Origin: an uncultured Pseudomonadales bacterium
GTDB taxonomy: Bacteria; Patescibacteriota; Microgenomatia; UBA1400; PJMF01
Length of the DNA: 64,000 nt
Direction: 5' to 3'
Assembly (NCBI GenBank): GCA_964653045.1
Contig: CAZZBW010000001.1
Location: forward strand, 617 to 64,616
Shown here: piece by piece, positions 30,601 through 44,471 of the stretch
How the letters are laid out: the number at the start of each line of letters is the position of its first letter
Position numbering within the stretch: the stretch's first letter is position 1
Notes under the pieces: model-generated
What the model saw: only the letters and a program-made list of their open reading frames with translations
What the model was told of the DNA's origin: nothing
Database searches by the model: none
Translations under genes and position numbers: made by a program

Positions 30601-33600
30601 TCCAAGAAGTACCATCATGGCGGAGGGTCTGACCGCTGGTACCAGTGGGGAGCAGCACACTAGATAAATTTGTCCAGACTGGGGCAGTATTCGCTCCTTG
30701 GCTCTGTAAGTAATATCCACTGGTACCAGCTAAGCCGCCTGGCATCAGGGCATTACTAAACTGGAGATTGCCAGCAATGTCTAGTTTTTGAGCTGGAGCA
30801 GTGGTGCCGATGCCGACGTTACCGGTAGTATTTATAACGAATTTTTGGTTCGCCGCATTGTAATCGGTGCCGATTCCGTAACTATATTGGGCACCGCCAT
30901 AAAATACACCAGAAAACCATGATGCGCTTGCTCCTGTGTATTGAATTCCAGCAATGCGGTCTATTGCTCCTCTGGTTAACTCTAAAATGGCTGAATTTCC
31001 TTCAAATTTAGCCATTGTTGCCAAGGATGGACCATTGGTAACATTCAAAATTACGCTTGGACTCGTCGTCCCAATTCCCACATTCCCCATGAAGTGACCA
31101 GCACCAGTGTTTGCATCTGCTCTAAACTTAGCACTGGCGGTGGAGTTTCCACCGATATATAGATTAAGAGACTGATTAGTAGGAGAGAGTCCTTGGTTGG
31201 CTAGTGTCCAGTAGTTAGTACCAACAGTAGTAGGATCTGTCCAAGTAGGAGTACCTGATCCAGCACTGGTTAACAGGTATCCGGTAGTACCAACACTACT
31301 GAAGCCATATGCAGTCCCAGTAGAGTAAGCAATCGTGCCAGCTGAACCGACTGTCGTGGCTCCCGTACCACCATATCCAACTCCCAGAGTACCAGTCACT
31401 TCAGTCGAACCCAAGTTAATCGCTTCACTGATCAGATCTTTATTAGCATTAGTTTTAACAGGTAGAGAAGCAGTTAGACCTGTGACTCGCACATCACCCG
31501 CAACTTCCAGCTTTTGAGCTGGTGCAGTGGTACCGATACCGACGTTGCCGGTAGAACTAATTGCTAACCTTGTCGTAGTTGTCTGGTTAAAATATATTGG
31601 ACCATCGCTTCTTTGATTTGCGATAATTGCAGAAAGACCACTGGCCGCTCCCGTAATTTTAACCCCATTGGATGAATCAAGTGAAGCTCTAATAAGGATA
31701 GATGGGGCACTGCCGGCAACATCTAAATTTGAACCGGCGATCGTCGTCCCAATCCCGACGTTCCCCATAAAGTGACCTGCACCAGTGTTTGCATCTGCTC
31801 TAAACTTAGCACTTGCCGTGGAGTTACCACCGATATATAGATTTAGAGACTGATTAGTAGGAGAGAGTCCTTGGTTAGCTAATGTCCAGTAGTTAGTACC
31901 CACAGTAGTAGGATCTGTCCAAGTAGGAGCTGTATTAGTCCCAGCAGAAGTCAATAGATATCCAGATGTTCCTGCTGCTGCTCCTGGCATGATTGCACCA
32001 GAGAATTGGAGGTTACCGGCTATGTCTAGTTTCTGAGCTGGTACTGTTGTCCCAATCCCTACGTTTGTCCCATCGTTATGTAGAAGTGAGTTAGCAATCC
32101 AAGATGTGCCGTCGTGTCTGAGGGTCTGGCCGCTGGTACCAGTGGGGAGTAACACACTAGACAAATTTGTCCAGACTGGGGCAACATTGGCTCCTTGGCT
32201 CTGTAAGTAATATCCACTGGTACCAGCTAAGCCGCCTGGCATCAGGGCACCACTGAACTGCAGGTTACCAGCTATATCTAGTTTCTGAGTGGGAGCAGTA
32301 CTACCAATGCCGACATTGCCAAGTGGATTAACAACAAATAATGATTGCGATGTTGAATCTTGAATCTGAAAGATATTGGCTGTCTGAGAAGCTGCTCCCT
32401 TAAGAATAAGGGCGTTATCTGTGGCGGTGTTGGACTGTAAGGTAAAATCATCGCTTGTCCAAATACCATTGAATTTTATTAAACCGTATCTTGAAGCAGA
32501 TGCTTGGGGGTATTGGTTAACGGTGCCGCTGGTAGTGTTGTTGGTCAAATACGAGTAATAGAGGTTAGCAACTCCGCCAGTACTGATGTCGTAGTCTGAA
32601 CCCCCAAAATAACTATTTTTTGCATTTACGGTATAGGCACCAGGAACATATAGTCCATACCTGGTGCCAGTAAAGTATCCAACGCTTGACACAGTAGTTC
32701 TCTCAATTGAAATTGTTTGCCAATTGTTGTATATGCCAACGGCGTCTTTATAGTCACCTCTTACCGATACGTTGCTGTCAAATATTGAAAGGGATGCGTT
32801 CGAGCTAAATATTCCATATAAGCTTCCGGAGCCAGTTGTTGATGAAACCGAAATAGACACATCACGGATAATGTTGCCGGATGTCCCTGATCCGGCGCCA
32901 ACTGTTATTGCTGCTACTGATCCGATATCTTTAATGTTTGTTGTATTACTGATTTGAATATCTTCTATCGACGATCCGCTACCAGACAAGTTCACTATAT
33001 AATTTATGCCTGTTCCTGCCGTTCCATCCCCATTTATTACAACATTTCCCGCACGTGATTTAAGTGTCGTATATGCAGGAACCAGTACGTTTTCAGTATA
33101 AGTACCAGGTAACACTTCAACTAAAAAGCGATTGTCTGGTGCTGGTGATTGTGTAGAAACATAAGTCATTGCGGCAGAAATGGTTGTGAAATCACCTTCG
33201 CCGTCAGGATCGACCACGACAGCGTGATCATAGGGACTCAGCATGCCGTCTTGAAATCTCACCTGACCTCCAGTTACGTCTAGCTTGTATTGAGGAGCAG
33301 TCGTCCCAATTCCTACATTCCCCATAAAGTGACCAGCACCAGTATTAGCATCCGCTCTGAATTTAGCTGAGGCTGTGGAGTTACCACCAACATACAGATT
33401 AAGAGATTGATTAGTAGGAGATAGTCCTTGATTAGCCAGTGTCCAGTAGTTTGTACCTACAGTAGTAGGATCTGTCCAAGTAGGAGTTCCTGTTCCAGCA
33501 CTGGTAAGTAAGTAACCTGTAGTACCAACACTACTGAATCCATATGCAGTCCCAGTAGAGTAAGCAACACTACCAGCTGAGCCTACCGTAGTAGCATTAG

Positions 33601-36256
33601 TACCACCATTACCTACACCCAGAGTACCTGTCACTTCAGCACTAGCTAGATTAATAGCTCCACTAATTAGATCTTTACTGGTATTAGTCTTAACCGGTAG
33701 AGAAGCAGTCAATCCTGTAATCCGGACATCGCCAACTACCTCTAGCTTCTGAGCTGGGGAAGCGGTACCGATACCAACATTACCCGTAGTTGGTAAGATT
33801 ACCAGATCTTCTGCAGGAGTAATGGTGATATCGCCATCATCGTTGGCAATTGTTGAGGCTGCGCCAGCGATGTGTAACCTGGCGGCAGGATTGTAAGTGC
33901 CAATACCAACATTACCCATAAAGTGACCAGTACCAGTGTCTGCGTCAGCCCGAAATTTAGCCGTAGCGGTGGAGTCGCCACCGACATAGAGGTTGAGAGT
34001 GGTATTAAGTGCGTGTAATCCCTGATTAGCCAGTGTCCAGTATGTCTCACCTGTGGCCGTCATCTCGATCCAGGTGGGATCGGCTCCAGCGCCGTTGGTA
34101 GAGAGGACATAACCAGCAGTACTTGGGGCAAGGGTGGTCATGGTGCCAGTGTTGTTAAAGAAGGGAATGCTGCCTCTGACCACACTACTCCAGTTCTGAC
34201 CAGTCCCGCCGTTACTGACACCTAGTGCGCCAGTTACTTCTGAACTGGCGAGATTAATTGCAGCACTAATGAGATCTTTATTGGCGTTAGTCTTGACTGG
34301 CAGAGATGCAGTCAGGCCTGTGATCCGGACATCTCCTACTACCTCAAGCTTCTGAGCAGGTGCGGTGGTGCCGATACCGACATTTGTCCCATCGTTAAAA
34401 AGAAGTGAGTTGGCTGTCCAAGATGTGCCGTCGTGTCTGAGAGTCTGACCGCTGATCCCAGTGGGCAGAAGAGTGCTGCTCATATCTGTCCAAACTGGCG
34501 CCGTATTAGCTCCCTGACTCTGTAAGTAATACCCACTGGTACCAGATTGGCCGCCTGGCATCAGGGCGCCGGAGAATCGGAGATTACCTGAGACGTCGAG
34601 CTTTTCTACAGGATTCGAGGTACCGATTCCCAGATTACCAGCCGAATTAATTACGCCAAGAGTAGTATCTGTACTCGTTTTCCATTGGGCAATATCGGCG
34701 GTGGCGGATGGGCCGGCTTTGAGGATGAGGGCGGTGCCACCCGCGTAGGTAGCGGAGAGGGTGGCACCGGGAGCGCTCAGATAGCCTTCCACATCTAAAT
34801 CAGAATTGATTTCAACTTTGCCAATTCCATCAGGGTCAAGGACAATGTCACCGTTCGAGCCGGCCGGAGTTTGGAGAGTCAGGGTCGCAGCTTCAATGGT
34901 GAATGATGTGCCAGTAGATTTGAGTATACTGTTGGACTCAGCAATCAGGATTTGACCGGCGTTGTCCATTACAAGAACAGTATTTTTGGTAGCACCACCA
35001 GTGGGAGCTGGAGGGTAACCTTGGAGCGTTTCGGAGTTGAGGGCATACGCCACTGATTTAATCGCTTGTCGCGGCGTCAGCACCTCTGCGTCGACCTCAA
35101 CCTCCAGCCAGACGTTGGAGTTTTCGGTAAATACTTCATTACCGATCTCGGCGCCGCACTCGTCGCCCAAGCCTATGGAAAAAATACCGTCTTGATCTGG
35201 ATCGACGCTACACGTCCCGCCTGAGTCCCAGAGCAAACTTCCGCCTGTACCTGGGCCGGTGTCGTAGAGATAGAACCGGACTGGAGTGGGGTCAATAATT
35301 GGGGTTTTGGCAATATCGGTTAATCTTCCTTGAAACGAGAGCGATCGATAAGGTCGGGTGAGCTCGGTGGGATAAGCAAGAGAAGGTGTGGCCGAGTCAA
35401 GCCACTGTTGATAGCCAAAAAGGCCTAGAGCCGAGAACAATAAAGCAACTATGGCCAATGTGGTGTAATTGAGCGAAGGTGCGCGGCTGGCGGAATGAAG
35501 TCGAGAGAGGGCGGAATTGAGTTGATACTGCCAGTCCTGATTGGAGCGAGTACTGACAGAACTGGTAAAGTTGTGATCTAAGGTGAGTAAAGGCAGCTGC
35601 CAGAGTTGTTTTTTGTTGGCAGAAGGTGTTTGTTTGGGTGTTTTGGGTAACTTTTTGGTCTTAAGTCCAGAAGCCATTCGGGTTAAGTGGGGCTCCGCCT
35701 GCGCATTAAGAGCAACAATTTCTGAGAAGCCATGTTCGACAAAACCCTCTTTTTGTAGCCATAGTGCAAATTGGGTAATACTCGATAATTTCCTTTTGAC
35801 CGTGCTGATTGATTGACCTTGGAAAAGAGAATTCTCGAGGAAGCTCAATAATTTGGGTTTTGTCAGAATTTGGGTTAGAGAAGATTGCTGGATGAATGCG
35901 ATGAATTGGCCGATATCAGAGCGATAACCCTTAATCGTTTGCGGTGAGCAGTGGGCACGATGGAGTGCTAAAAGATATGTTTGGAGCGCGACTCCAGCCT
36001 GGGAAATGAAATAGAGTCTTGCAAACTGATGGAGCAAGGGTTGGGGCTGACGTTTCGGATGAAGAAAGCGAGAAAGTAAAGCACGGGCGTGTCCAAACAG
36101 ATTTTGAGCCGCTTGGTGATGATGAAGTTCGACCAGCTCATCGATGGCAGCACGAATATCTTGCTCTTTGGCCTCAATTGAGCGACCAAAAAGACCTACA
36201 AGGTCAATGAGGGCAATGAAAGTGCGCTTTTCGGTTGGCATGAGCAGCTTTGTCAA
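18674..36256 (-). CDS. Giant (5860 aa) surface fibril protein: N-terminal integrase-type core-binding domain, one TM helix, then a long tail-fibre-like repeat array
   Basis: Continuous ORF. Residues about 90-180 match the Phage_integrase_N / XerCD core-binding fold. TM LAIVALLFSALGLFGY. At least 30 copies of the GNVGIGTT.P..KL.V.G motif. At least 9 copies of YWTLANQGL...NLY.GG.STASAKF.AD. A tail-fibre-like LDNQHGSYY module. C-terminal coiled-coil region. Confidence 0.8.
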   Translation of the reverse strand: MTKLLMPTEKRTFIALIDLVGLFGRSIEAKEQDIRAAIDELVELHHHQAAQNLFGHARALLSRFLHPKRQPQPLLHQFARLYFISQAGVALQTYLLALHRAHCSPQTIKGYRSDIGQFIAFIQQSSLTQILTKPKLLSFLENSLFQGQSISTVKRKLSSITQFALWLQKEGFVEHGFSEIVALNAQAEPHLTRMASGLKTKKLPKTPKQTPSANKKQLWQLPLLTLDHNFTSSVSTRSNQDWQYQLNSALSRLHSASRAPSLNYTTLAIVALLFSALGLFGYQQWLDSATPSLAYPTELTRPYRSLSFQGRLTDIAKTPIIDPTPVRFYLYDTGPGTGGSLLWDSGGTCSVDPDQDGIFSIGLGDECGAEIGNEVFTENSNVWLEVEVDAEVLTPRQAIKSVAYALNSETLQGYPPAPTGGATKNTVLVMDNAGQILIAESNSILKSTGTSFTIEAATLTLQTPAGSNGDIVLDPDGIGKVEINSDLDVEGYLSAPGATLSATYAGGTALILKAGPSATADIAQWKTSTDTTLGVINSAGNLGIGTSNPVEKLDVSGNLRFSGALMPGGQSGTSGYYLQSQGANTAPVWTDMSSTLLPTGISGQTLRHDGTSWTANSLLFNDGTNVGIGTTAPAQKLEVVGDVRITGLTASLPVKTNANKDLISAAINLASSEVTGALGVSNGGTGQNWSSVVRGSIPFFNNTGTMTTLAPSTAGYVLSTNGAGADPTWIEMTATGETYWTLANQGLHALNTTLNLYVGGDSTATAKFRADADTGTGHFMGNVGIGTYNPAARLHIAGAASTIANDDGDITITPAEDLVILPTTGNVGIGTASPAQKLEVVGDVRITGLTASLPVKTNTSKDLISGAINLASAEVTGTLGVGNGGTNATTVGSAGSVAYSTGTAYGFSSVGTTGYLLTSAGTGTPTWTDPTTVGTNYWTLANQGLSPTNQSLNLYVGGNSTASAKFRADANTGAGHFMGNVGIGTTAPQYKLDVTGGQVRFQDGMLSPYDHAVVVDPDGEGDFTTISAAMTYVSTQSPAPDNRFLVEVLPGTYTENVLVPAYTTLKSRAGNVVINGDGTAGTGINYIVNLSGSGSSIEDIQISNTTNIKDIGSVAAITVGAGSGTSGNIIRDVSISVSSTTGSGSLYGIFSSNASLSIFDSNVSVRGDYKDAVGIYNNWQTISIERTTVSSVGYFTGTRYGLYVPGAYTVNAKNSYFGGSDYDISTGGVANLYYSYLTNNTTSGTVNQYPQASASRYGLIKFNGIWTSDDFTLQSNTATDNALILKGAASQTANIFQIQDSTSQSLFVVNPLGNVGIGSTAPTQKLDIAGNLQFSGALMPGGLAGTSGYYLQSQGANVAPVWTNLSSVLLPTGTSGQTLRHDGTSWIANSLLHNDGTNVGIGTTVPAQKLDIAGNLQFSGAIMPGAAAGTSGYLLTSAGTNTAPTWTDPTTVGTNYWTLANQGLSPTNQSLNLYIGGNSTASAKFRADANTGAGHFMGNVGIGTTIAGSNLDVAGSAPSILIRASLDSSNGVKITGAASGLSAIIANQRSDGPIYFNQTTTTRLAISSTGNVGIGTTAPAQKLEVAGDVRVTGLTASLPVKTNANKDLISEAINLGSTEVTGTLGVGYGGTGATTVGSAGTIAYSTGTAYGFSSVGTTGYLLTSAGSGTPTWTDPTTVGTNYWTLANQGLSPTNQSLNLYIGGNSTASAKFRADANTGAGHFMGNVGIGTTSPSVILNVTNGPSLATMAKFEGNSAILELTRGAIDRIAGIQYTGASASWFSGVFYGGAQYSYGIGTDYNAANQKFVINTTGNVGIGTTAPAQKLDIAGNLQFSNALMPGGLAGTSGYYLQSQGANTAPVWTNLSSVLLPTGTSGQTLRHDGTSWIANSLLYNNGTNVGIGTTNPISFVDILAGTGGSLRIRDSANRSLLFTTYDGTNPATISTANTVSGLLLKSQDGGNQIFLANSGNVGIGTITPAQKLEVAGDVRVTGLTASLPVKTNANKDLISAAINLASAEVTGTLGVGNGGTNATTVGSAGTIAYSTGTAYGFSSVGTTGYLLTSAGSGTPTWTDPSTITGTNYWTLANQGLSATNQSLNLYVGGDATATAKFMADGATGQGYFAGNVGIGTTTPSQKLDVSGAIRLGAAGANNVLNTSAAAGAASSSLYWGDKMVCDASGNCGPSSNWTVNAGTISPNNTSLDMLIGGTASSSAKFAFLNVNSGTPTASISGNLALAVPTGANPATKLNILNGGTFGIRTSTGGDAGLTERFTILNNGNVGIGSTSPLSFFDVNSLFNVTSAGNVGIGSTAPNAKLNIVSTNTTSLLNLTGDSITSGNGINVSLDGLTTGNGLYFESTSTALTTGNLAYLNWNPSGSTEVYATGDLFKLNVGQYGNIGKILGIYNNDSEVFSVAQNQITSAVPHQFTAAGDVSMAYDLIFTNQTSSNIQTYGPFSITVGEAWESNNLTLKTYGAGDIIANLSGTGNFLVPTGNVGVGSTAPAQKLDVVGNVQFSGAIMPGSSAGTSGYLLTSAGAGATPTWTDPSTITGTSYWTLANQGLHATNTTLNLYVGGNSTASAKFMADGATGAGYFAGNLGIGTTAPGAMLQLGTAGTSRGTLRLTGNTSGYTQIQPAEAAGDWTLTLPANDGDLNQMLTTDGSGNTSWTTISTGSTTWDAIQSPVGAQSLTMGANTSTWTWNSLTTGTGLTSSSTSLTSGTMFSLSTSSTALSSGGLLNLSATGAPASTWTGDLAKFEYNNADADVDGSALKVGLLGTDALGSGTALNITTSQTGTGALALRVNDDGTYADTTPFVVDMGGNVGVGTTSPGAYLDIYADTMVSGGKAVSVSQIGSIDSQTRYGIYSTATGGGINTSTNVAGYFSATGAVKNYGLIVDSGNVGIGSTAPAQKLDIVGNLQFSGAIMPGAAAGTSGYLLTSAGANTAPTWTDPTTVGTNYWTLANQGLHPTNTTLNLYVGGNSTASAKFRADANTGAGHFMGNVGIGTTVPTQKLEVVGNALVNNTLYMLDINHSIRAVSGQGVYIDTYGVIDPFFVQQVSGNVGIGTTAPAFKLNLAAATTAVGGIGFGSDTNLYRSAADTLKTDDNLVVGTLGAGSTDTVVTHSSGTLQTRSIDTRVWGTSLVDGSGTNGYNAYWSPDSNTLAAEQYVNVTRGGLGANMTAGGAGEIIYSTGTAAYGHLTAGTSGMALISGGAAAPTWGTLSTTYGGTGQNWSAVARGSVPFFNNTGAMSTLAPSTAGYVLSTNGAGADPTWIEMTATGGGSYWSLANQGLYPTNTTLNLYIGGNSTASAKFRADADTGTGHFTGNLGIGTTNPTARLHIAGAASTIANSTGNITITPAANLIMAPTAGNVGIGSTNPTQKLDIAGNLQFSGAIMPGAAAGTSGYLLTSAGANTAPTWTDPTTVGTNYWTLANQGLSPTNQSLNLYIGGNSTASAKFRADANTGTGHFMGNVGIGTTSPTYKLTVDSGYIGLSDGYGVSWGTSTIYGYQNSLIGFQTAGSEKMRLSATGGLSLGNGYIVTDPGAGSMIVSGNVGIGTTAPSAMLQLGTAGTSRGTLRLTGNTSGYTQIQPAEAAGDWTLTLPANDGDLNQMLTTDGSGNTSWTTISTGSTTWDAIQSPVGAQSLTMGANTSTWTWNSLTTGTGLTSSSTSLTSGTMFSLARSGAGLTTGGKLLNIDMGAATAGNGATIATTGIYTGTGLLTLTANSATTGTLSSISGTALTSGTALSITAGGTGLTGNALYVTSPSTSAFSNGGVRFNFTGAHTGNGFQLDDATATGNAMAINVNSLTTGKGLAISSSTLSSGSLLDLVTTSTAATGSTQKGLNISLSGTNVTSAQTTYGAYITNTHAGTTSTNVGLYASATGGTTANYAAIFANGNVGIGTTSPSAKLRVVGGYSDISDSGTPPSSGAFGTAMGHLSGSYGWIQTYGSTPLILNPLASNVGIGTTAPSYKLDVVGNGQFIYGSNGNALRLGGVSSGLDFNVYNSYAILTTEASNQALALQTNGGNVGIGTTSPGNKLAISGSSTGSIGAFIDNTNTAGYGVLRINSGNADAAVGAALHSIGSTYSGSGAYAPLTTALVGYDSGGLSLTANNAAGVISMFTAGSAAGNERLRISANGNVGIGTTTPSAKLHINGDLKLATGANVNYIATTVGATGDDTTLVTEQGIREAINAGGPIGGGWTDDGSVVRLTTVGDLVGIGTTSPGGKLDIADGQLALILGADSGASTRTNATQKWGRFGGYHYTNAEEPVAIATTQSENGYNILHFGGGTPAMNATTYMLFYTAANGTTTTGTERMRIDSAGNVGIGTTNPLQKLDVDGNIQIASANESTDPVLFLSDRDSLTTEGLKFTYDNSTGASYIDNLYNNDNGDIFIRTKTAVAPINALTIKGNGNVGIGTTNPNAKLRVQDALASGAYGFGAIFQTRLTGTATAGVGLISDYQTTSTTASTTTAGALQASQMSAITTGTQYTIGGQFSGWSSGVNGATTHSIGGRFQAGGNVTSGTINAYGVYIQNALSMNLTGTSTNYGLYVETPTGADTNVAAYFGGNVGIETTNPNNFKLQVSGDIGGQTNNTSKLGSSAIRFANIYSVLGNYSGQITSSLAVGTSPFAVTSTTLNTNLNADLLDNQHGSYYMPASTDNWVNITGDTMTGTLNFSGVASDITTATNEHLSLMPAGTGNVGIGITNPLGKLQITGDEVRIGSGGTINSATGDGDLYVQDALEVDGDTALRNTIVIGNVGIKTSSVLSGVNLQLGGNSPAGVFYLKTTSNSNGANLGEIAFGGLDSGFAEQEYASMNANIVSSTAGSEIGRLDFNTFAGGSDATRLSISGDNVGIGTTAPASKLNIVTSLDGSSYTANLTNTSTGTSASNFLQFGNNASSDLFLVGLRGSAYTGEGNDALIWNRAGSNIRFGTNNSLKMILTASGNLGIGTTTGAGQKLEIYGGNLKINANNAGILGGATNTSTAGFIYMAALDDDKMFRFWTDSATAQYNTAEGGGWSSASFDYAEKFPYVNETSVSKGDLVSVVANDGVIETLDRASRQYDENLVGIVSTQPGFIGGIPWDDSEGENKKSPNLEKAVALAGRVPVKVSTINGPLKTGDRVTSSNLPGIGMRSSQAGFSAGYVLQNFNPDPASCQYVASAEGILWPDFPKGGSPLEYTKDCYRLPDGTLIGKVIAFVNPGWFDPDTSLTSVSQLSLSHTADSSYDVYDPSGQKINRVSAFSQSMIGELTAGLVLSKEIFVEDKLVSPIVESNQIITDQLASRNITTNSLEFKGDTGKILASVDATGKASFTEAVINRVSIPTQALISNLVANSISATNVAADALSVGGKSLSIYVREIVDEALANTSGLIASIPEILQLSDLVVNRRAEINELEVNTLAINQIPIDQYLDERIAQRLSAVSPTPTPSVTDPVSFDPTQPTLLGELNAQEVTVSGGLSASSVTTTTVDTQNLVADSGSFELELKATDLEATAARFDVIESNLAKIDEVTALTASLANATVSGTLYVENIADLDQHIAEAFTQPSLSELFFNEKSEITQELDQINQLIASLDSTVQELSSFDKSLEELSLTEEEVVLNGSALFIEEYFRVNGTGYIAESLGIGQQLNIGNKVQLTENYLAFTANPEAEGELAIFQIQPSGKGVLSIMAGLMTLDETGLVNITGNLHVAGDITTEGSLLSNLLQPVDFGNPFQVQVAGASSESGELKNSRFEIVDATGAPVATISAQGRAEFAGGIGIGSEDLSDQSASASADTVINTDKTSGKAVLPAGQSLLVIETSAITDKSLVYITPLGSTQNQVLYVASQQPDQEIITEATEEKPEETVIIPGHFSVAVDQALDTDLQFNWWIVN
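25241..25590. repeat. About 350-bp intragenic repeat, copy A (near-identical to 28114-28463)
   Basis: Direct comparison of the two stretches shows 1 mismatch over about 350 bp. Both lie inside the 5860-aa ORF and encode the same about 116-aa segment (...GAMLQLGTAGTSRGTLRLTGNTSGYTQIQPAEAAGDWTLTLPANDGDLNQML...). Confidence 0.85.
28114..28463. repeat. About 350-bp intragenic repeat, copy B
   Basis: See copy A. The copies lie about 2.9 kb apart, in direct orientation and in frame. Confidence 0.85.
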
Positions 36257-36739: not shown

Positions 36740-37486
36740 ATGAAAAAGTCATCACTCAAGGTTCTTATTAGTCTGGGGGCGTTAGGTTTACATTCTGCCC
36801 ATCTCGACGAGAATTACTTATCAGTAATAGTGCCCGAGCTGAGCATTAATGGGCAAAGATCGTTGATTTATCATCTAAAGCGATCTTTCTTGGTTGAACA
36901 GTTCCGACCTGCCAAAGGAATAAAGAGCTTGCGAATTACAACTGGGGGGATGAGAGTGTTGAAGGCTGAATTTCCGGCTCTCTTTCCTGAAAATGGAAAG
37001 AGAGCCGGATGGCACTGTATGGTGTTCGTTAAGCCGCCAAAGAATGACCCGGCTTTTCGATATCTGCGTTCCCAGGTGATAGCAGATGGAGGTATCAATC
37101 TAACTAGAGGGGTATATCTCAAGCAGTCGCCTTATTCGACCAAGCTGATGATGATGTGTGACAAGCTGTACGCCCAAGCAATCAGTATATTTTTGATAGA
37201 TTCTTGGATATTTGGGTTTGATTCGCTATATTTGGAGAAAATGCAGGGAGCAGATACCCATTTTTCACTACTGTCTGGTGTTAGCAGTGAAATAACTCAA
37301 TTGCTAAGTAAAATTAGCAAAGATAATATTGCGCAATATCAGCGAAAAAAGTTAATTGAGGGTCTGTTAGAAAGATACTATGCAATTACTCTCAATTATC
37401 CATACTTTACCAATAACGAATTCTCTCAATATATCTCGACATCGAACGTATATTTACAGGTGGGAGAGCTCTTAAAATTATTGTGA
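36740..37486 (+). CDS. Hypothetical protein, possibly a winged-helix (PaaX-like) regulator, divergent from the giant gene
   Basis: 248-aa ORF after a 480-bp AT-rich intergenic region. Weak resemblance to the PaaX N-terminal wHTH (SLIYHLKRSFLVE...LRITTGG). No strong motif recognised. Confidence 0.4.
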   Translation: MKKSSLKVLISLGALGLHSAHLDENYLSVIVPELSINGQRSLIYHLKRSFLVEQFRPAKGIKSLRITTGGMRVLKAEFPALFPENGKRAGWHCMVFVKPPKNDPAFRYLRSQVIADGGINLTRGVYLKQSPYSTKLMMMCDKLYAQAISIFLIDSWIFGFDSLYLEKMQGADTHFSLLSGVSSEITQLLSKISKDNIAQYQRKKLIEGLLERYYAITLNYPYFTNNEFSQYISTSNVYLQVGELLKLL

Positions 37487-37790: not shown

Positions 37791-39413
37791 TTAGTTTATT
37801 TTATGAATATTCTTCCATGCGGCTATGCTGATTAGAATCAGCAGTAATAGTACATTCGTCCAGTGCGGCCATAATAGGGTGATTAGCGCACTGATGGGTA
37901 GATTAAGCATCCAAACTAACGGTCCGGTCCAACTGCCGCACTCTACTGATTTAGCTGCTTTGGTAGTTAGTCTTTTCCCGTTTTTTTCTATTAATGTGAG
38001 GGGAATGCCTACGACTGGTATAGTTTCTTTTTCTTTAATCTCAAACTTTTCACTTTGGTAAAAGTTTTGCCAGTGTCCATGTTTCGGTTTCTTTTCCAAG
38101 CATGGAAACAGCCCTGCTGGATGTTGGACTGATATCTGATATTTTCCTGGTTCTAGTTCAGTTAGCTGGTATCTTCCGTGTTGGTTGCTGAGCTTTCGAT
38201 CAACTTCTTGAGCAATCTCTTCATTATTAATTAGATATATGCTAATCCTGGCGGAGGCAAATCTGTGTCGCTCTGGTAACTCATACACCAGACCGAACCA
38301 CCGCGCGTGAATTGGCCACCAGCGCAGTATCCACAAGAACTCTTTCATCTGCCCAAAATTAGGCTTTCTGCCCAAGCGGCTGGTTAGATAAGCCAGTCCG
38401 ATCATAAGGGTGATAATTAACCAAATTAGTAGCATCAAGTACTCAGAGTAGCCCAGGTTGGGCAGGCGGCTTTTGGCATATGACCGCAGCGATGTTACAA
38501 CTGAAGCCATCTTGGTGGTTTGATCGGCAATTGTTTGAAATATAAGGGGAGGTGGTGAGCCGACAGTCTTGGGAGAGGCAATGATCATAAACTGCAGGTT
38601 CTGAATCATGCTGATATTGCCAGCTGCATCTTGGATGATGAAGCTGAGACTAATGGTAGCGTTTTCTGGAAGTTGAGGAAGCTGGGTTGTCCAGACTCCG
38701 TCAGGTCCAATCACGAAATCAATCACAATGGTCTGGCCATCAGGTAAGACGATGATCAGCTTCACTTGAGCGCCCGGTTCTCCAGTACCGTGGAGAACCG
38801 GGCTATTGGTATGAACGATCAATAACCCAGATTCGGTCAGATCTGACGGAGCAGTGAAATCAACTGGTAGCTGACCAATTTGATCAATACTGAATGCTGG
38901 GGCTAGGGTATCAATAATGAAGTACCAGATGGCCGAAAAACTGGAGTTACCACTGGTATCAACGGCTTCAACTTGCCAGAAGTGTTGTCCGTCTGCCAAG
39001 GGATGAAGGGAATTGAGAGTGAATACCCCGTTGACGATGCTGGACGGATCGATCAAGTCATACATGATCGATCCGTCCACCCACAACCGGTAATACGCCA
39101 CCTCGACGTTGTCAGTGCTGCCAATCCAGATAAAATCTGGAATGGCAATATTAATTTGGCTGTTATTATCTGGAGAGATGAGAATAGGAGCAGAAGGTTT
39201 GATAATATCTGGGACGCCGGCAGTCACTTGGGTGCCACGACTTATTTTAACTGTTTGGGCCAAACTAAGCTTGGGATTGATTACTGCCCAACTCAGTGAA
39301 ACCACCATCAAGCAGATGAGAACTTTGCTCGGGAGATTGAGTTTGAAACTACGCCTTTTTTTCAAGGTCTTGCAGCTTATTTTCCAACTCTTTGATGCGG
39401 GCAGATTGATCAT
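37791..39413 (-). CDS. Membrane protein with Ig/FN3-like ectodomains and a CarboxypepD_reg-like domain
   Basis: N-terminal signal/TM, central TM (LMLLIWLIITLMIGLAYL) and C-terminal TM. ARISIYLINNEE...HGRYQLTELEPGKYQISV matches the carboxypeptidase-regulatory / Cna-B-like beta-sandwich signature. True start is probably ATG at about 39308, since the long ORF overlaps the upstream gene by 64 nt. Confidence 0.5.
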   Translation of the reverse strand: MINLPASKSWKISCKTLKKRRSFKLNLPSKVLICLMVVSLSWAVINPKLSLAQTVKISRGTQVTAGVPDIIKPSAPILISPDNNSQINIAIPDFIWIGSTDNVEVAYYRLWVDGSIMYDLIDPSSIVNGVFTLNSLHPLADGQHFWQVEAVDTSGNSSFSAIWYFIIDTLAPAFSIDQIGQLPVDFTAPSDLTESGLLIVHTNSPVLHGTGEPGAQVKLIIVLPDGQTIVIDFVIGPDGVWTTQLPQLPENATISLSFIIQDAAGNISMIQNLQFMIIASPKTVGSPPPLIFQTIADQTTKMASVVTSLRSYAKSRLPNLGYSEYLMLLIWLIITLMIGLAYLTSRLGRKPNFGQMKEFLWILRWWPIHARWFGLVYELPERHRFASARISIYLINNEEIAQEVDRKLSNQHGRYQLTELEPGKYQISVQHPAGLFPCLEKKPKHGHWQNFYQSEKFEIKEKETIPVVGIPLTLIEKNGKRLTTKAAKSVECGSWTGPLVWMLNLPISALITLLWPHWTNVLLLLILISIAAWKNIHKIN

Positions 39414-40401
39414 TTTTCTTGCTGATAAGGTGTCTGCGAATAATAATTATCATAGCGACAACTACCAGCAGTGCAATGATCACGGCGAGTACTAAAGTAA
39501 TTGGGAAGAGCCAAAAGCTGAGTTTAGCAATCACGACTTTCCCTGATTGACCGTAATTCATGGTCAAAGTGGCAAAATACTTTCCCGTTCCCCAGATTTG
39601 TTCAAACTTACCATCAAATGGCCGCTCAGCCAGAGGAAAGACATTTTTTGACTCAATATTAATGCTGGCTACCTGCCGACCAAACATATTGGTAATTTCC
39701 AAGTTGATGTTGGGTTGAATATGAATGTCTGAGAGGTTCTCAACACTGAAAGAGAAAGGCACGGGACCGTACTCAGAAAAGGCTGGCATCTTAAAGTTGC
39801 GGATATATGCCTCTTCATTAATCGGTCCGTTGACGAAAACATAGAGTAGAGTGCCGACTTTTTGACTTATGCCAGACTGAGACTCGGTGAGTTGATCTAC
39901 TTCAGCACTGTCAAGCTTTTCCGGAGTGGGTTGGTGAGTGATCATGGCATAGTGACCACCTGGCAGAGCATCTGCGGGGATCTCGATCACCACTGATAAA
40001 GCCTTGACTTCATTAGCCTGAATTGTTTGTGAGTTGGGGGCGATGGTGATCCAATCAGCCAGGCTCCAGCGTGTGGAGGTTGATTCGGTAATGGGCATGG
40101 GGGTGGAACCATCGGCGCCGATCACAAAATCTTGAGCTTGAGACACAACATTTATCTGAGTGGTCGAAGAGTTTTTCACTCTAATGCTAGTTTGCAATGT
40201 TTCTCCTGGGTTACCCTTAAGAGTTCCGTCGTCACCGAGGCGAGGAGGGATAGCAGTTAGAGTCACCTGATTTTCGTCAGTAACTTGGGCGAAAACAGAA
40301 GCTAGAAAATGAGTTTTTCCCAAAAATACCAAGCCGGCAATAAACAAGGATAAGGCAAGTATTCTGGAGAGCTGGGATTTGGTTTTGTCTGGGCAGGACA
40401 T
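39349..40401 (-). CDS. Cell-surface protein with DUF916/DUF3324-like architecture (signal peptide, beta-rich ectodomains, C-terminal TM anchor plus basic tail)
   Basis: Signal peptide (LALSLFIAGLVFLG). C-terminal TM LFPITLVLAVIIALLVVVAMIIIIRRHLISKK. Internal ...IPADALPGGHYAMIT motif paralogous to the 41974-42966 product. Confidence 0.55.
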   Translation of the reverse strand: MSCPDKTKSQLSRILALSLFIAGLVFLGKTHFLASVFAQVTDENQVTLTAIPPRLGDDGTLKGNPGETLQTSIRVKNSSTTQINVVSQAQDFVIGADGSTPMPITESTSTRWSLADWITIAPNSQTIQANEVKALSVVIEIPADALPGGHYAMITHQPTPEKLDSAEVDQLTESQSGISQKVGTLLYVFVNGPINEEAYIRNFKMPAFSEYGPVPFSFSVENLSDIHIQPNINLEITNMFGRQVASINIESKNVFPLAERPFDGKFEQIWGTGKYFATLTMNYGQSGKVVIAKLSFWLFPITLVLAVIIALLVVVAMIIIIRRHLISKKNDQSARIKELENKLQDLEKKA

Positions 40402-40424: not shown

Positions 40425-41903
40425 CTAAAATGTCGCAGTCGCGGTGTAGGTCACATAGTTAGAGTAAGTGCCGGCTGCTTGGAGAGGGGAAATTATGGCT
40501 TTGTAGCAGACATAAAGATTATGATTGTCGGCTACGGAGGTGTGAGTCATGATTGTCTGGGGTGGTTCAGTGATGGCATTTTCATCATCGGCAAACTGGC
40601 GGAAACAAGTGCCGGCGCCGGTACAGGCGCCAACAGCATTACTGGTGTATTGAAACGCAGGAGTAGTGCCACTGGTGTTGACATCGTGAAGAGAGAAAGC
40701 AAATCCCTTGACGGCAGTTTGGCTCCACTCGGCTGGATTGGTGTGTGACATATTGCTGGTGTTACCTACGGAATCGGGGATACACTCAGTACCAGTGTTG
40801 TCGCCCAGACATAAGTTGGCATTTCTTCCTAACTGATCATTTGCGATTGCAGTTACTGCGTAGCCATTACTGGCATTGGTGGAGACAGCCAAGCCTTGGG
40901 CAGCATAGGTAAAGCCGTCGATTGCGAGATAGCCGAAGGGTACGGAAGAAGGGGTGGTGGTGACAGACGTGTTAAAGCCACAGGCAGAAGTTCCAGAGTT
41001 CAAACCAAGGATTCGGAAAGTAATCTGAGGAGCCACTTCAGCTGTGATGCGGACTGCCTCGACCACTCCGATTGCCACCGTGCTGAAATCAGCTACAGCA
41101 TCCGAACTATCTAAATGTTGAATGATTGGTCTGTAGGTATCGGCGTAACCGAGTGAGTGAGTATCTTTTTTGGGAGCTGGATTGATAACTGAGCTAATAA
41201 TAATTGCGTCATTGGTGACACCGTCGAAGTCGGTGCCGATCGCGCCATTGCCAGTATAACTACACTCGTAGGCATGATAATCGACTCCGGCAATGGTGAC
41301 ATTGGAGGCGGTAGCGGTCCCGGCGGCAAAATCATAGCCAGTCAAGTCAGCTGGGCAAGTGACAGTAGGAGCCACGGTGCCGAAGTCAAACGCCCCGCCA
41401 TCGGGAATACCGTTAGCCGCTTCAGTGTCATCGGTGACTGCAGGCAGGAGAATTCTAAACGAACCGTTGGCAATAGCGTTGGTAGTTGAAAATCTGACAG
41501 TTAATGACGCAGAGCTGGTGGCGACCAGATCATCTCCTGCGTCGGCATCACCAGTGGCGAGAACAGGATCGATATTGACGGTTGAGTCACTGACTACATC
41601 TGTAACTGAGTACAGTGTAGCGGTATTACCAGTTCCAACAGTAAGGAGCTGGTCGCCGATGACTAATTGAGCTGAAGAGGTCGATGGCCAGGAGGCAGCG
41701 GTGGTAGTGAGAATTAGTTGTGAGGTGCCGACGGTATTGCCCGCAGCCAGGGAGCCGCGGAACGAAGGCCGAGAATTAGAGAGAGTAATCGAGACATCAC
41801 CAAGATTGGCAGAGCGAGTATCGTCGAGATATCCAGCGATGATAACCCCAGAAAGACCGATTGTTGCCAAGATACCTAATCTAAGGATAAAAGCTTTGGG
41901 CAT
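40425..41903 (-). CDS. Secreted beta-rich surface protein with a C-terminal WxL-like / spore-coat-U-like domain
   Basis: Signal peptide (ILRLGILATIGLSGVIIAG). C-terminal block ...FRQFADDENAITEPPQTIMTHTS...YKAIISPLQAAGTYSNYVTYTATATF is paralogous to the C-terminus of the 42970-43746 product. It ends with an AG.Y...V.Y.A motif reminiscent of SCPU and WxL C-termini. Confidence 0.55.
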   Translation of the reverse strand: MPKAFILRLGILATIGLSGVIIAGYLDDTRSANLGDVSITLSNSRPSFRGSLAAGNTVGTSQLILTTTAASWPSTSSAQLVIGDQLLTVGTGNTATLYSVTDVVSDSTVNIDPVLATGDADAGDDLVATSSASLTVRFSTTNAIANGSFRILLPAVTDDTEAANGIPDGGAFDFGTVAPTVTCPADLTGYDFAAGTATASNVTIAGVDYHAYECSYTGNGAIGTDFDGVTNDAIIISSVINPAPKKDTHSLGYADTYRPIIQHLDSSDAVADFSTVAIGVVEAVRITAEVAPQITFRILGLNSGTSACGFNTSVTTTPSSVPFGYLAIDGFTYAAQGLAVSTNASNGYAVTAIANDQLGRNANLCLGDNTGTECIPDSVGNTSNMSHTNPAEWSQTAVKGFAFSLHDVNTSGTTPAFQYTSNAVGACTGAGTCFRQFADDENAITEPPQTIMTHTSVADNHNLYVCYKAIISPLQAAGTYSNYVTYTATATF

Positions 41904-41973
41904 ATTTTGACAACAAAAAATCTGCTAATTCGTCCATTGTAGTCAGGTCAATGGATACTTTGCAATAGGCAAT

Positions 41974-42966
41974 TTACGATTTCCTCTTCAAGAAGTACCA
42001 AACTAATTGGGTAAAACCAAAAATGAAACCAATGAAAAACACTGAGAGTGGTAGAGCAAAGAATGCCCGTTGAAATTTTTGTGTAGAAAGATCGGCGTTG
42101 ATCAATTCAATCTCGAGTTGGTATGGTCCGAGGAGAAATTTTGGGGTAAAAACAAACTCAATGGGCGTCAACCCTTCACTTGGGTTGACAGTCGATTCAT
42201 CCAAGCTTGCGCCATATAACTTCCTTGTTTCTTTACCCAAGACGACCATAGGCATCAGCTTTTGTTCATAAATGCTTTCACCCCGCCAATTAATGAGTTT
42301 AGCACTGCCAGAGGCAATCGAAGCCTGAATGCTTTGATTGGTAATTGACGGGGAAAAATTAATTGGGCGAAAACTATCAACGATTGGGCCAATACCAAAA
42401 TCAGTGATACTTAAGTTGGTGTCTTGGTCCGTCTGCGAGACCAAGACAATCAGGTTGCTGCCAATTGAGGGCAGGACAGTAGTACTATTATTAAAGTTTG
42501 GAGCGCTGGCTTTATCGGTCTGTGGTAAGACTGATTCAAAGAGAATAGTGAGGTAGTACTCTTTTTCGAGCGCGTCGCGTGGTGGGGTAATTTTGATACT
42601 CAGCTGGCTTTTCCGCCCAGGTGGGAGAGTTACGGCGGCAAAGCCCTGATCGGGCAGATCTAAATGGGGAAAGGTCAGCTCTGCTTGGGGAATAGCTTTT
42701 CCCTGATTTGGGATAAAATCTACAAATTTTGGTTTGAGTGTCAATGCAGTTTGACCGGTGTTTTCCAAAGTAACGATATGGGTGGCCGAAGTACCTGGTC
42801 TGACTCTGAGGAAGGCGACGGGTGGAGTAATGGAAAGATCGAACACGGATTGGGCGCTGCTGGGGCTGGGATGAGCCACCAGCAGCGCCAACAGTATAAG
42901 TAGTAGTAATTTCACTCGAATCACCGGTTTATTTGCCAAAATTTGGTTAAAATTGGTTTTTGTCAT
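41974..42966 (-). CDS. Cell-surface protein with DUF916/DUF3324-like architecture (paralog of 39349-40401)
   Basis: Signal peptide (LLLLILLALLVAHPSPSSA). N-terminal SVFDLSITPP...TLENTGQTALTL. ...PPRDALEKEYYLTILFE motif. C-terminal TM FALPLSVFFIGFIFGF plus KRKS. Confidence 0.55.
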   Translation of the reverse strand: MTKTNFNQILANKPVIRVKLLLLILLALLVAHPSPSSAQSVFDLSITPPVAFLRVRPGTSATHIVTLENTGQTALTLKPKFVDFIPNQGKAIPQAELTFPHLDLPDQGFAAVTLPPGRKSQLSIKITPPRDALEKEYYLTILFESVLPQTDKASAPNFNNSTTVLPSIGSNLIVLVSQTDQDTNLSITDFGIGPIVDSFRPINFSPSITNQSIQASIASGSAKLINWRGESIYEQKLMPMVVLGKETRKLYGASLDESTVNPSEGLTPIEFVFTPKFLLGPYQLEIELINADLSTQKFQRAFFALPLSVFFIGFIFGFTQLVWYFLKRKS

Positions 42967-42969
42967 TTA

Positions 42970-43746
42970 TTAATACCCTGGCACAGCCACGTACACCACA
43001 CTAGTTTGATAGCGGCCGGCCGCTTCCGATCCGGATAGGCCTGCCTTGTAAGTAACAGTACTTAGCCTGTCGAATGCGGCACTGGTAGTGCTCATGATCG
43101 CCTCCATTGGCTCGACTGGAGAAGTGGCGGCTTTGTTGGCAAACTGGCGGAAATGATTACTAGAGGTGAAGTCAGGAGCAACGTCCACTCCTTGGATATT
43201 GAAGCCAAAGCCGCCCACACCTGTGTCTTGCCAGATTGTAGCCACTGTCTCATCACAATCATTATTATCACAAGTGGTATCGGGAATAGCATAACTACCG
43301 TCGACAGTTTGGAGTGGATGAGCTTCATAAGCGTAAATAGTGTAGCCACCGGCATTGGGGGCATTGATCAACAGGGTATGAGCGGCGGTGTTATGCGCTT
43401 GGGCAGTGAGCAGTCCCAGATTAATGTTGGTATTGCTGATCACAAACTGGAACGGTTTGATTTGGTAAATATACTGGAACCCACTGCCTAGGAAATAATT
43501 GGATACTCCATACTCACCGTATGGTCCCGCAAAGCTTTGCCCCACCGTGTCAGTGACGGTATAAGTATCACCAGATTTTTCTCCCGATGTAATATTAAAA
43601 TTGCCAAACTGAATGATATAGGAATCTGACTCGAGGTTTTCAGCTAAAACTGGGGCAACTAAAAAAGAGGTTGAAATGATGAATTGCGTTAACGCCAAAA
43701 CAAAAATCCAGTGCCAATGAGCGACTTTTCTTTGATTAAACCTCAT
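42970..43746 (-). CDS. Secreted surface protein with a C-terminal WxL-like / spore-coat-U-like domain (paralog of 40425-41903)
   Basis: Signal peptide. C-terminal ...HFRQFANKAATSPVEPMEAIMSTTSA...TYKAGLSGSEAAGRYQTSVVYVAVPGY. Stop is 4 nt before the start of the downstream gene. Confidence 0.55.
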   Translation of the reverse strand: MRFNQRKVAHWHWIFVLALTQFIISTSFLVAPVLAENLESDSYIIQFGNFNITSGEKSGDTYTVTDTVGQSFAGPYGEYGVSNYFLGSGFQYIYQIKPFQFVISNTNINLGLLTAQAHNTAAHTLLINAPNAGGYTIYAYEAHPLQTVDGSYAIPDTTCDNNDCDETVATIWQDTGVGGFGFNIQGVDVAPDFTSSNHFRQFANKAATSPVEPMEAIMSTTSAAFDRLSTVTYKAGLSGSEAAGRYQTSVVYVAVPGY

Positions 43747-43769: not shown

Positions 43770-44471
43770 TCAGCTATCTTGCTCAATCTGCTGATTCAAC
43801 TGCTCGATTTCGTCATGAATTTTTGGTTCACAACGGAAGTAAGTCGTTTGCCAAGACTGAAGTTGTTGCTTGAGATTAGATTGAAAAGTTTGAAAGGCTG
43901 CCAGTTGATCTGTGGCAACTTGTAGCTGTGATTTGTACTTTTCTAACTCGGTGTGCAGCGACTCGATTTCGTTTTCTTGGGTTTTCAAAGCTTGAGTGTC
44001 TTCCCGCAGTGTTTGTTTTTTGGTGATAACCTCCTCGTGTTGCAACTTGGCAAACATAAAAAAAACCATGACGATGGGCAGAGTTGCCAGATGGACAAAT
44101 ACACCCAGGTCCAGAACGGGTGACAAACTCAAGTGAAACAGGGCGGCTCCAGCCATCACTGCTGTCGCCACTGATGGTCTGGTGCTCATTACCAAAAAGA
44201 ACAGATGAATATAAGTCAGCGGATAAAGCGGAGAGTTAAGGTTACCGGTTCTACCAATAACCAAGAGCAAGCTGAAAGTGACAAAAGCTAGTTCAAACGA
44301 GGTTTGCCCTGGCAAAAGATGCCAGGGCTTGGTTTTTTTGAGGGCAAAATAACAGATAGCAGAGAGCGCGACTGCCTGAATCGAATAGGGTACAAGGAGG
44401 GGAGTGCGCAACCACAAATAAGCTAGGGTAACTGCGGCAAGAAGTACCAGGGCGTGAAGGGTTGGGCGCAT
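43770..44471 (-). CDS. Integral membrane protein with a C-terminal coiled-coil; first gene of the surface-complex operon
   Basis: At least 5 TM helices, then a heptad-rich tail (KKQTLREDTQALKTQENEIESLHTELEKYKSQLQ...). No recognisable catalytic motif. Confidence 0.5.
   Translation of the reverse strand: MRPTLHALVLLAAVTLAYLWLRTPLLVPYSIQAVALSAICYFALKKTKPWHLLPGQTSFELAFVTFSLLLVIGRTGNLNSPLYPLTYIHLFFLVMSTRPSVATAVMAGAALFHLSLSPVLDLGVFVHLATLPIVMVFFMFAKLQHEEVITKKQTLREDTQALKTQENEIESLHTELEKYKSQLQVATDQLAAFQTFQSNLKQQLQSWQTTYFRCEPKIHDEIEQLNQQIEQDS

Follow-up and report, generated by a model that had tools for sequence, protein, structure and literature searches.

Results

A cluster of six minus-strand genes encoding secreted and membrane proteins

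The sequence examined here, a contiguous stretch of 64,000 nucleotides from contig CAZZBW010000001.1 (assembly GCA_964653045.1) that we refer to as the window, contains a compact cluster of six genes, two of which encode secreted proteins with a common C-terminal domain. All six lie on the minus strand, packed between positions 37791 and 44471 with intergenic gaps of 3-70 bp. The cluster begins with the gene for a 233-aa membrane protein (43770-44471) having hydrophobic segments and a coiled-coil tail, whose only Pfam matches are weak coiled-coil ones. It continues with a small secreted subunit of 258 aa (42970-43746), which is PamT-like (see below) and comprises a signal peptide, a conserved N-terminal segment and the C-terminal domain of interest; a DUF916/WxLIP-like protein of 330 aa (41974-42966), in which a signal peptide and two beta domains are followed by a C-terminal membrane helix; a large secreted subunit of 492 aa (40425-41903) resembling the two-domain pilin PamA; a 350-aa protein (39349-40401) with a signal peptide, a DUF916-like domain, a second beta domain, a C-terminal membrane helix and a short coiled-coil tail; and a 540-aa membrane protein (37791-39413) bearing Big_13 immunoglobulin (Ig)-like repeats and a prealbumin-like domain. 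A promoter-like site (44506-44478) precedes the 233-aa gene and a terminator-like site (37706-37694) follows the 540-aa gene, each recognized by consensus match only. An earlier, sequence-only reading of positions 40425-43746, which hold the 258-, 330- and 492-aa open reading frames (ORFs), had taken both the 258- and 492-aa products to be secreted; each has a single N-terminal hydrophobic segment and no other membrane segment, consistent with that view.

A shared C-terminal domain

The same reading proposed that the two secreted proteins converge in their last 110 or so residues. Pairwise alignment of the two C-termini by BLASTP, a comparison that the reading itself had suggested, reveals clear homology (32% identity over 119 residues, E 2e-10) and includes every motif that had been listed in support (W..T.V.GF.F, FRQFA, EP...IM..TS.A, V.YKA and AAG.Y...V.Y.A). 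Alignments of the two families, with 39 members for the 258-aa and 42 for the 492-aa protein, were compared using hhalign, which returned a probability of 99% and E 5.6e-18 over 147 columns and paired residues 106-255 of the small protein with residues 319-489 of the large one. On this sequence evidence the two C-terminal domains are homologous, far beyond chance; the proposal of a common domain is upheld and its length revised to about 150 residues.

In the 258-aa protein we delimit this predicted Ig-like pilin domain to residues 102-258 (42973-43443, minus strand), and in the 492-aa protein to residues 319-492 (40428-40949, minus strand), where it ends in AAGTYSNYVTYTATATF and is marked out by the hhalign comparison, a match to the Pam pilin profile NF058581 and conserved paired cysteines. 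A conserved Trp occupies position 172 of the small and 393 of the large protein. The segment 'C.FNTSVTTTPSSVPFG' of the 492-aa protein, which had been likened to the start of SCPU domains, is present at residues 308-324 and opens the shared domain, its SVPFGYL part aligning with NINLGLL of the 258-aa protein; the proposed kinship found no counterpart in a PF05229 (SCPU) match.

Relationship to Pam pilin families

Two NCBIfam models, NF058581 (CPR_Pam_pilin_C; curated cut-off 55 bits) and NF058579 (CPR_pilus_PamT; curated cut-off 240 bits), matched proteins of the cluster significantly, at scores under these thresholds. NF058581 was matched by the 258-aa protein at E 1.8e-6 (28.1 bits, spanning profile positions 2-148 of 148) and by the 492-aa protein at E 1.2e-3 (18.9 bits), while residues 18-146 of the 258-aa protein matched the PamT model at E 1.2e-6 (28 bits). 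The result extends through both families: NF058581 was matched by 38 of the 39 members of the 258-aa family (best E 3.4e-10) and 37 of the 42 members of the 492-aa family (best E 1.5e-8), and was the sole family matched consistently across relatives of both proteins; the PamT model was matched by 20 of the 39 relatives of the small subunit (best E 2.3e-9). Because the scores fall below the curated cut-offs, the NCBI annotation pipeline would leave these proteins unnamed.

Both models derive from a 2026 preprint by Troman et al. (bioRxiv 10.64898/2026.03.03.709456), which describes electron cryo-microscopy (cryo-EM) structures of two filaments of Ca. Mycosynbacter amalyticus, formed by PamA and PamB (25PZ, 25QA). 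In these filaments the inter-domain linker strand of one subunit completes the C-terminal domain of the next, an instance of donor-strand exchange. The preprint further describes PamT, a single-domain protein proposed as the tip and lacking a donor strand; PamC and PamD, which are FimC/PapD-like with an additional C-terminal membrane helix; and a membrane-anchored PamR encoded in the same operon. Homologues were reported there from Saccharimonadia and, by language-model searches, from Microgenomatia.

Predicted structures and fold neighbours

The AlphaFold2 model of the 492-aa protein (predicted local distance difference test, pLDDT, 87.6) comprises a helix at residues 4-28, an N-terminal beta-sandwich (35-280), a lone strand (294-300) and a C-terminal beta domain (332-490), a modelled architecture that is that of PamA and PamB as determined by cryo-EM. 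For the 258-aa protein, with a mean pLDDT of 79, confidence exceeds 90 at residues 97-258 and falls below 50 at residues 36-94. Foldseek found no strong match in the PDB for the 258-aa model; the weak matches were mostly FimF, FimG, the PapG pilin domain, CsuA/B, FimA, PapH and TasA. Among the structures matched by the 492-aa model, which are of tandem Ig-like type, were RbmA and CfaE, a fimbrial tip subunit with two domains. Most of the nearest folds are thus subunits of fibres built by strand complementation, a likeness at the level of fold only; the sequence-only reading had likened the terminal strand to that of SCPU/Csu-type pilins, and the predicted fold of the shared domain is indeed closest to chaperone-usher pilins. 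Sequence searches of the PDB with both proteins and their family profiles yielded no useful match. Fibril structures obtained from the environment offer another point of reference: TLP-1a/b (CryoSeek; PDB 9IKJ/9IKK), modelled on a protein of a Flavobacteriales bacterium, forms a tubule with n+4 strand exchange (PMC11494351), and the TLP-1b donor is an N-terminal strand that is disordered in AlphaFold2 models. Similarity of the window proteins to TLP-1a/b was undetectable in the PDB searches.

Two membrane-anchored helpers homologous to DUF916/WxLIP

The 330- and 350-aa proteins are paralogues (hhalign of the two families, probability 99.7%, E 3.7e-25). The 330-aa family comprises 544 representative clusters at E<=1e-3. 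A signal segment at the N-terminus and a hydrophobic segment at the C-terminus are found in both window proteins and in all of their relatives inspected (139/139 and 119/119, respectively). The Pfam family relevant to both is PF06030, formerly DUF916 and now WxLIP_PGBD, with a cut-off of 27.3 bits. The 350-aa protein scores just under this threshold (21.4 bits); 35 of the 40 members of its family match (best E 2.7e-7), and several orthologues exceed the threshold and carry the NCBI name DUF916. The 330-aa protein has weak Pfam matches to ASH, Cep192 and WxLIP_PGBD. When aligned by hhalign with 78 Firmicutes WxLIP proteins drawn from 80 loci, the 350-aa family gave a probability of 95.5% (E 1.4e-8) and the 330-aa family 96.4% (E 1.1e-9). 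By these profile comparisons the two proteins are DUF916/WxLIP homologues, and the C-terminal hydrophobic segment is present in every member of the 330-aa, 350-aa and WxLIP families. DUF3324 (PF11797) was not detected in the helpers, so that the correspondence with WxLIP concerns the first domain and the overall architecture.

The known setting of such proteins is the WxL cluster of Firmicutes, in which a small WxL protein and a large one that carries the domain C-terminally are encoded together with a WxLIP composed of DUF916, DUF3324 and a membrane helix (PMC9772566, PMC10599100). Published AlphaFold work predicts that the WxL sandwich is completed by a WxLIP strand running parallel; by analogy this insertion is the geometry of chaperone complementation, although the authors did not describe it so. 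The helper architecture likewise is that reported for PamC and PamD, as FimC/PapD-like proteins with a membrane helix, and by analogy we regard the 330- and 350-aa proteins as putative membrane-anchored chaperones.

DUF916-like genes were also seen in other settings. A plasmid of Deinococcus sp. D7000 (CP058536.1, 5870-8316) encodes a 300-aa DUF916-like protein without a membrane helix that aligns with the 350-aa family (hhalign 98.3%, E 1.1e-14); its gene is flanked by those of two secreted proteins, one of 291 aa and one of 189 aa that ends '...AGGSYLFDVAFTALVLP', and in both cases comparison with Pam-like and WxL profiles showed no significant similarity. On a plasmid of Arthrobacter caoxuetaonis (NZ_CP099467.1, 4227-5804) a DUF916 gene adjoins that of a 169-aa secreted protein, which is WxL-like (hhalign 81%, E 1.2e-5), ends 'NYTATIVHSVI' and has no Trp-x-Leu motif; the literal motif is thus not universal among DUF916-linked partners. 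Considered as possible intermediates, these loci had to be set aside, as neither connects to the Pam-like domain; similar systems may nevertheless exist beyond the Candidate Phyla Radiation (CPR) and Firmicutes.

Candidate acceptor and donor strands

In chaperone-usher, Csu and Pam pilins an N-terminal or linker strand is donated, and the acceptor groove is lined by the last strand, F; in chaperone-usher pilins this strand bears a conserved C-terminal motif, which pairs with the donor. In the shared domain the terminal strand carries a glycine some 15 residues before the end, hydrophobic residues at alternating positions, and an aromatic residue that is last or nearly so. Because it resembles the chaperone-usher F-strand motif, the terminal AG.Y...V.Y.A strand is probably, by analogy, the edge of an acceptor groove and not a donor. 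The sequence-only reading had cast it as the donor, a proposal we abandon, since in chaperone-usher, Csu and Pam pilins that part is played by an N-terminal or linker strand. In the 258-aa protein the proposed F strand, assigned by analogy with chaperone-usher pilins, is AAGRYQTSVVYVAVPGY (42973-43023, minus strand), in which G244, Y246, T248, A254, V255 and P256 are invariant and residues 250-256 are modelled as a strand.

As the donor of PamA and PamB is their inter-domain linker, we propose that the corresponding element of the 492-aa protein is residues 288-300 (AEVAPQITFRILG; 41004-41042, minus strand), a conserved strand between the two domains that is by this analogy probably the donor. 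Within it A288, F296 and G300 are invariant, and V290, P292, Q293, I294 and I298 nearly so. The 258-aa protein presents a second candidate. Its residues 35-101 (LESDSYxIQFGNFN...GFQYIY...FxFxIS; 43444-43644, minus strand) form its most conserved segment, with 20 of the 42 columns that are invariant in the family alignment (start Met excluded) despite a pLDDT below 50. This segment may be an inter-subunit element, either donated or partner-binding, that perhaps folds only in complex. An alignment of it with the linker of the 492-aa protein, placing YIIQFGNFN over PQITFRILG, was not significant (E 0.11).

The shared domain and the WxL and SCPU families

The sequence-only reading had compared the C-terminal domain with those of the WxL (PF13731) and SCPU (PF05229) families. 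Scanned at E<=1, neither the 258- nor the 492-aa protein matched any Pfam family at all, and neither PF13731 nor PF05229 was matched by any of 39 relatives of the 258-aa protein; true WxL proteins in the same scan scored E 1e-39 to 1e-42. Both families and a merged alignment of the shared domain were then compared with WxL sets totalling 148 sequences (97 small and 51 large proteins, from 80 Firmicutes loci). Probabilities by hhalign were 0.3-8%, and an hmmsearch of 150 WxL ORFs gave nothing significant, with no match below E 0.06. Trp-x-Leu motifs are absent from both window proteins, the colinear positions being GY(T/A)(I/V) and Y(V/T)A, and the conserved Trp lies elsewhere. On the Pfam, hhalign (at most 8%) and hmmsearch results we reject membership of WxL, and membership of SCPU finds no support in the Pfam scan.

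At low stringency the shared domain nonetheless aligns with WxL in a colinear manner, with VP.G on the WxL start, GY.V on the first W.L, and AG.Y.....Y.A on G.Y...L.W.L. The associated E-values, 0.06-0.07 as against 0.17-0.67 for unrelated Ig-like controls, are not significant; we regard distant homology of the shared domain to WxL as a possibility. At the level of the system the comparison fares better, in that the locus has the layout of a WxL cluster and includes DUF916/WxLIP homologues.

Features of other assembly pathways were also sought. No usher and no PapD_N/C family occurs in the seven proteins scanned (those of 233-540 aa and the product of a 248-aa ORF, described below), the giant proteins encoded downstream having been scanned at their ends only. 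Neither subunit has an LPXTG sorting signal with a hydrophobic tail; both stop after the last strand (…VYVAVPGY, …YTATATF).

Genomic context and conservation of gene order

The cluster has divergent upstream neighbours encoding LeuRS, ComEA and ComEC. Two relatives (L084 and L086), at about 55% protein identity, have the same gene order: a divergent LeuRS gene; genes for proteins of 232-241, 248-249, 312-356, 492-517 and 360-379 aa; a 650-673-aa Big_13 protein; a 247-248-aa gene on the opposite strand; and a giant protein. In both, the small subunit is directly preceded by the syntenic 232-241-aa gene. The 650-673-aa proteins are the syntenic orthologues of the 540-aa protein, which matches Big_13 at E 7e-16 and has membrane segments near residues 326-344 and 510-539. 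With its ATG as annotated, the 540-aa ORF shares 65 nt (39349-39413) with the end of the 350-aa gene; as orthologues align only from about residue 33, the true start probably lies downstream. A 248-aa ORF of the window (36740-37486, plus strand) lies on the strand opposite to the cluster; it and the 233-aa protein are syntenic with the cluster, and a family match was found for neither. Each protein of the cluster has hundreds of homologues; those of the 258- and 492-aa proteins, at about 50-65% identity, come from metagenomes and metagenome-assembled genomes (MAGs) and are all annotated as hypothetical. Those with a named source are nearly all from Patescibacteria, Microgenomates, Pacebacteria or Woesebacteria, the exceptions being a few generic or doubtful MAG labels ('bacterium', Pseudomonadales, Vitreimonas).

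Downstream of the cluster, on the minus strand, are two giant ORFs. One encodes a repeat protein of 5860 aa (18674-36256) with a Phage_int_SAM_1-like domain near its N-terminus (residues 93-171, E 8e-8), followed by long 'NVGIGTT.P..KL' repeats; a recombinase-type SAM domain at the head of a giant surface protein is odd. The other, of 3870 aa (7060-18672), contains a sialidase-N-like region as well as Laminin_G_3 repeats. L084 and L086 have giant genes in synteny, and the SAM-like N-terminus of the 5860-aa protein recurs in relatives. A further very large ORF, of 2249 aa, lies on the plus strand (55530-62279). A 'tail fibre-like' neighbour of pam operons is mentioned in the preprint (bioRxiv 10.64898/2026.03.03.709456), to which the 5860-aa protein possibly corresponds; whether it belongs to the system is uncertain.

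Discussion

A probable Pam-type pilus operon

We consider it probable that this locus is the core of a divergent Pam-type pilus operon in a Microgenomates-like member of the CPR (Patescibacteria), and that the domain common to its two secreted proteins is a strand-accepting pilin domain. The case draws on the homology of the two C-termini, the sub-threshold but significant Pam match, the pilin-like predicted fold, the DUF916 homology and membrane anchoring of the helpers, and the conserved operon order. Features in common with the Pam pilus are several. The 492-aa protein is a putative secreted pilin with two domains, an N-terminal beta-sandwich and an Ig-like domain at the C-terminus, joined by a stretch that includes a strand; it is accompanied by a small subunit of one domain; the same operon encodes two paralogous helpers, each of which has a signal peptide and, C-terminally, a membrane helix; and that single operon resides in a CPR genome, with homologues overwhelmingly from CPR/Patescibacteria. 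The locus differs in having one large pilin in place of PamA, PamB and PamE; in its candidate anchor, a 540-aa Big_13 protein with several membrane segments and not an RbmA-like protein with two fibronectin type III domains; in its neighbours, which are LeuRS, ComEA, ComEC and giant repeat proteins in contrast to ATP synthase; and in its host, which is Microgenomates-like and not one of the Saccharimonadia.

Several observations weigh against this assignment. All Pam-profile scores of the window proteins lie below the curated cut-offs (28 and 19 as against 55 bits; 28 as against 240 for PamT). PamT is described as having no donor strand, yet the 258-aa protein carries a strongly conserved N-terminal segment of 65 residues. 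A PDB profile search with the 350-aa family retrieved neither PapD nor FimC, and no NCBIfam model of a Pam chaperone was matched by that family. The ATP synthase genes reported beside pam operons were not seen adjoining the cluster. Finally, the likeness of the window proteins to the Pam proteins of M. amalyticus is drawn from profiles and published descriptions.

From the fold neighbours and the PamA/PamB cryo-EM structures we infer that the subunits form a filament by donor-strand exchange; the chaperone, tip and anchor roles, and the identity of the donated strand, are likewise putative. The suggestion of the sequence-only reading that the domain marks a polymerising, strand-exchanging subunit is in this respect probably correct, given the match to the Pam pilin C-terminal profile. 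The shared domain would be a pilin domain of Ig-like but incomplete fold, whose groove takes a beta strand from another protein. Both subunits would be exported by Sec; on the outer side of the membrane they would be held by the 330- and 350-aa proteins, a strand of which would occupy the groove until it was displaced by the inter-domain strand (about residues 292-300) of the following 492-aa subunit, the terminal F strand pairing with the incoming donor. A linear filament would thereby grow from the membrane by donor-strand exchange, with neither an usher nor an outer membrane. The 258-aa protein would be a PamT-like tip or a minor subunit, whose N-terminal segment could itself be donated, and the Ig-repeat membrane protein of 540 aa may anchor the fibre as a candidate anchor or terminator, in a role analogous to that of PamR.

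Alternative interpretations

The resemblance to WxL clusters invites a different interpretation, namely a surface complex that does not polymerise, whose subunits are docked singly and held by a DUF916-type strand, the N-terminal domain of the 492-aa protein serving as an adhesin. The layout equals that of a minimal WxL cluster, with a domain-only small protein, a large protein carrying the domain C-terminally and a membrane-anchored partner of DUF916 type; the helpers are homologous to WxLIP over the DUF916 domain (hhalign 95.5-96.4%; PF06030 in 35 of 40); and the low-stringency alignment is colinear, the two W.L motifs being paired with GY.V and AG.Y.....Y.A in that order. We nevertheless judge such a complex unlikely. 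Neither window protein, nor any of 39 family members, matches PF13731 at E<=1; hhalign probabilities reach at most 8% and the hmmsearch of 150 WxL ORFs came back empty; Trp-x-Leu motifs and the LPXTG protein of WxL clusters are missing from the locus; no family other than that of the Pam pilins, which build filaments in M. amalyticus, is matched significantly; and the nearest folds are fibre subunits. WxL proteins, moreover, are regarded as peptidoglycan-bound and non-filamentous (PMC9772566, PMC10599100).

Two further alternatives retain the idea of a fibre. In one, which we think quite unlikely, the 258-aa protein would itself be the main, homopolymeric subunit, joined through its N-terminal segment in the manner of the TLP-1 fibrils from a pond or of N-terminally extended pilins, with the 492-aa protein as adhesin or adaptor; residues 35-101, with about half of the invariant columns and a pLDDT below 50, suit that role, whereas the PDB searches found nothing similar in sequence to TLP-1, the profile matched by the N-terminal part is that of PamT, itself a proposed tip subunit, and the alignment of the N-terminal segment with the 492-aa linker (E 0.11) is not significant. 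The other would make the subunits archaic chaperone-usher (Csu/SCPU) pilins or sortase-assembled Gram-positive pilins. Some likeness to the former exists in the predicted fold of the shared domain and in a C-terminal strand resembling the F-strand motif, but the window proteins stand outside the sequence families (PF05229 is unmatched), no usher or periplasmic chaperone family appears among the seven scanned proteins or at the scanned ends of the giant proteins, the system has no outer membrane or soluble periplasmic chaperone, the helpers are membrane-anchored, and the probable donor is an internal linker in place of an N-terminal extension. The subunits also end after the last strand (…AVPGY, …ATATF), with neither LPXTG nor a membrane anchor. 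Because usher, LPXTG and sortase features are missing, we reject classical chaperone-usher and sortase pili, an assignment that seems to us very improbable.

A possible link between Pam pili and WxL systems

A Pam-type pilus operon at this locus would be a divergent member of a recently described kind, and what is new is the demonstrable DUF916/WxLIP identity of its helpers, which suggests a link between Pam and WxL systems. That link, through DUF916, appears to be unreported, and for the pilin domain it is unproven: the Pam preprint mentions neither WxL nor DUF916 (bioRxiv 10.64898/2026.03.03.709456), and in the library searched we found no paper linking DUF916 with CPR, or WxL with chaperone-usher mechanisms. 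We offer, as a tentative and rather doubtful proposal, that Pam pili, the WxL/Csc clusters of Firmicutes and the DUF916-linked plasmid loci of Actinobacteria and Deinococcus constitute one ancient monoderm system, a 'chaperone without usher', in which DUF916 proteins would be donor-strand chaperones and the WxL domain a diverged Pam-like pilin domain. In favour of a common origin, sequence profiles establish homology of the helpers, and for the pilin domain they offer a colinear, non-significant resemblance of motifs. Should the proposal be true, WxL proteins, long seen as monomers docked on peptidoglycan, would owe their assembly to strand complementation or exchange, and they might polymerise.

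The CPR is a very large and mostly uncultured group of organisms attached to other microbes, whose attachment organelles are largely unknown. In this locus a probable operon of Pam type, its order conserved in two Microgenomates-like relatives, has been missed by annotation, which records hypothetical proteins with scores below cut-off. Lactobacilli, enterococci and Listeria have WxL surface-protein clusters that are implicated in virulence and adhesion and have as yet no settled mechanism of assembly; to these the DUF916 helpers provide a testable bridge from such operons.

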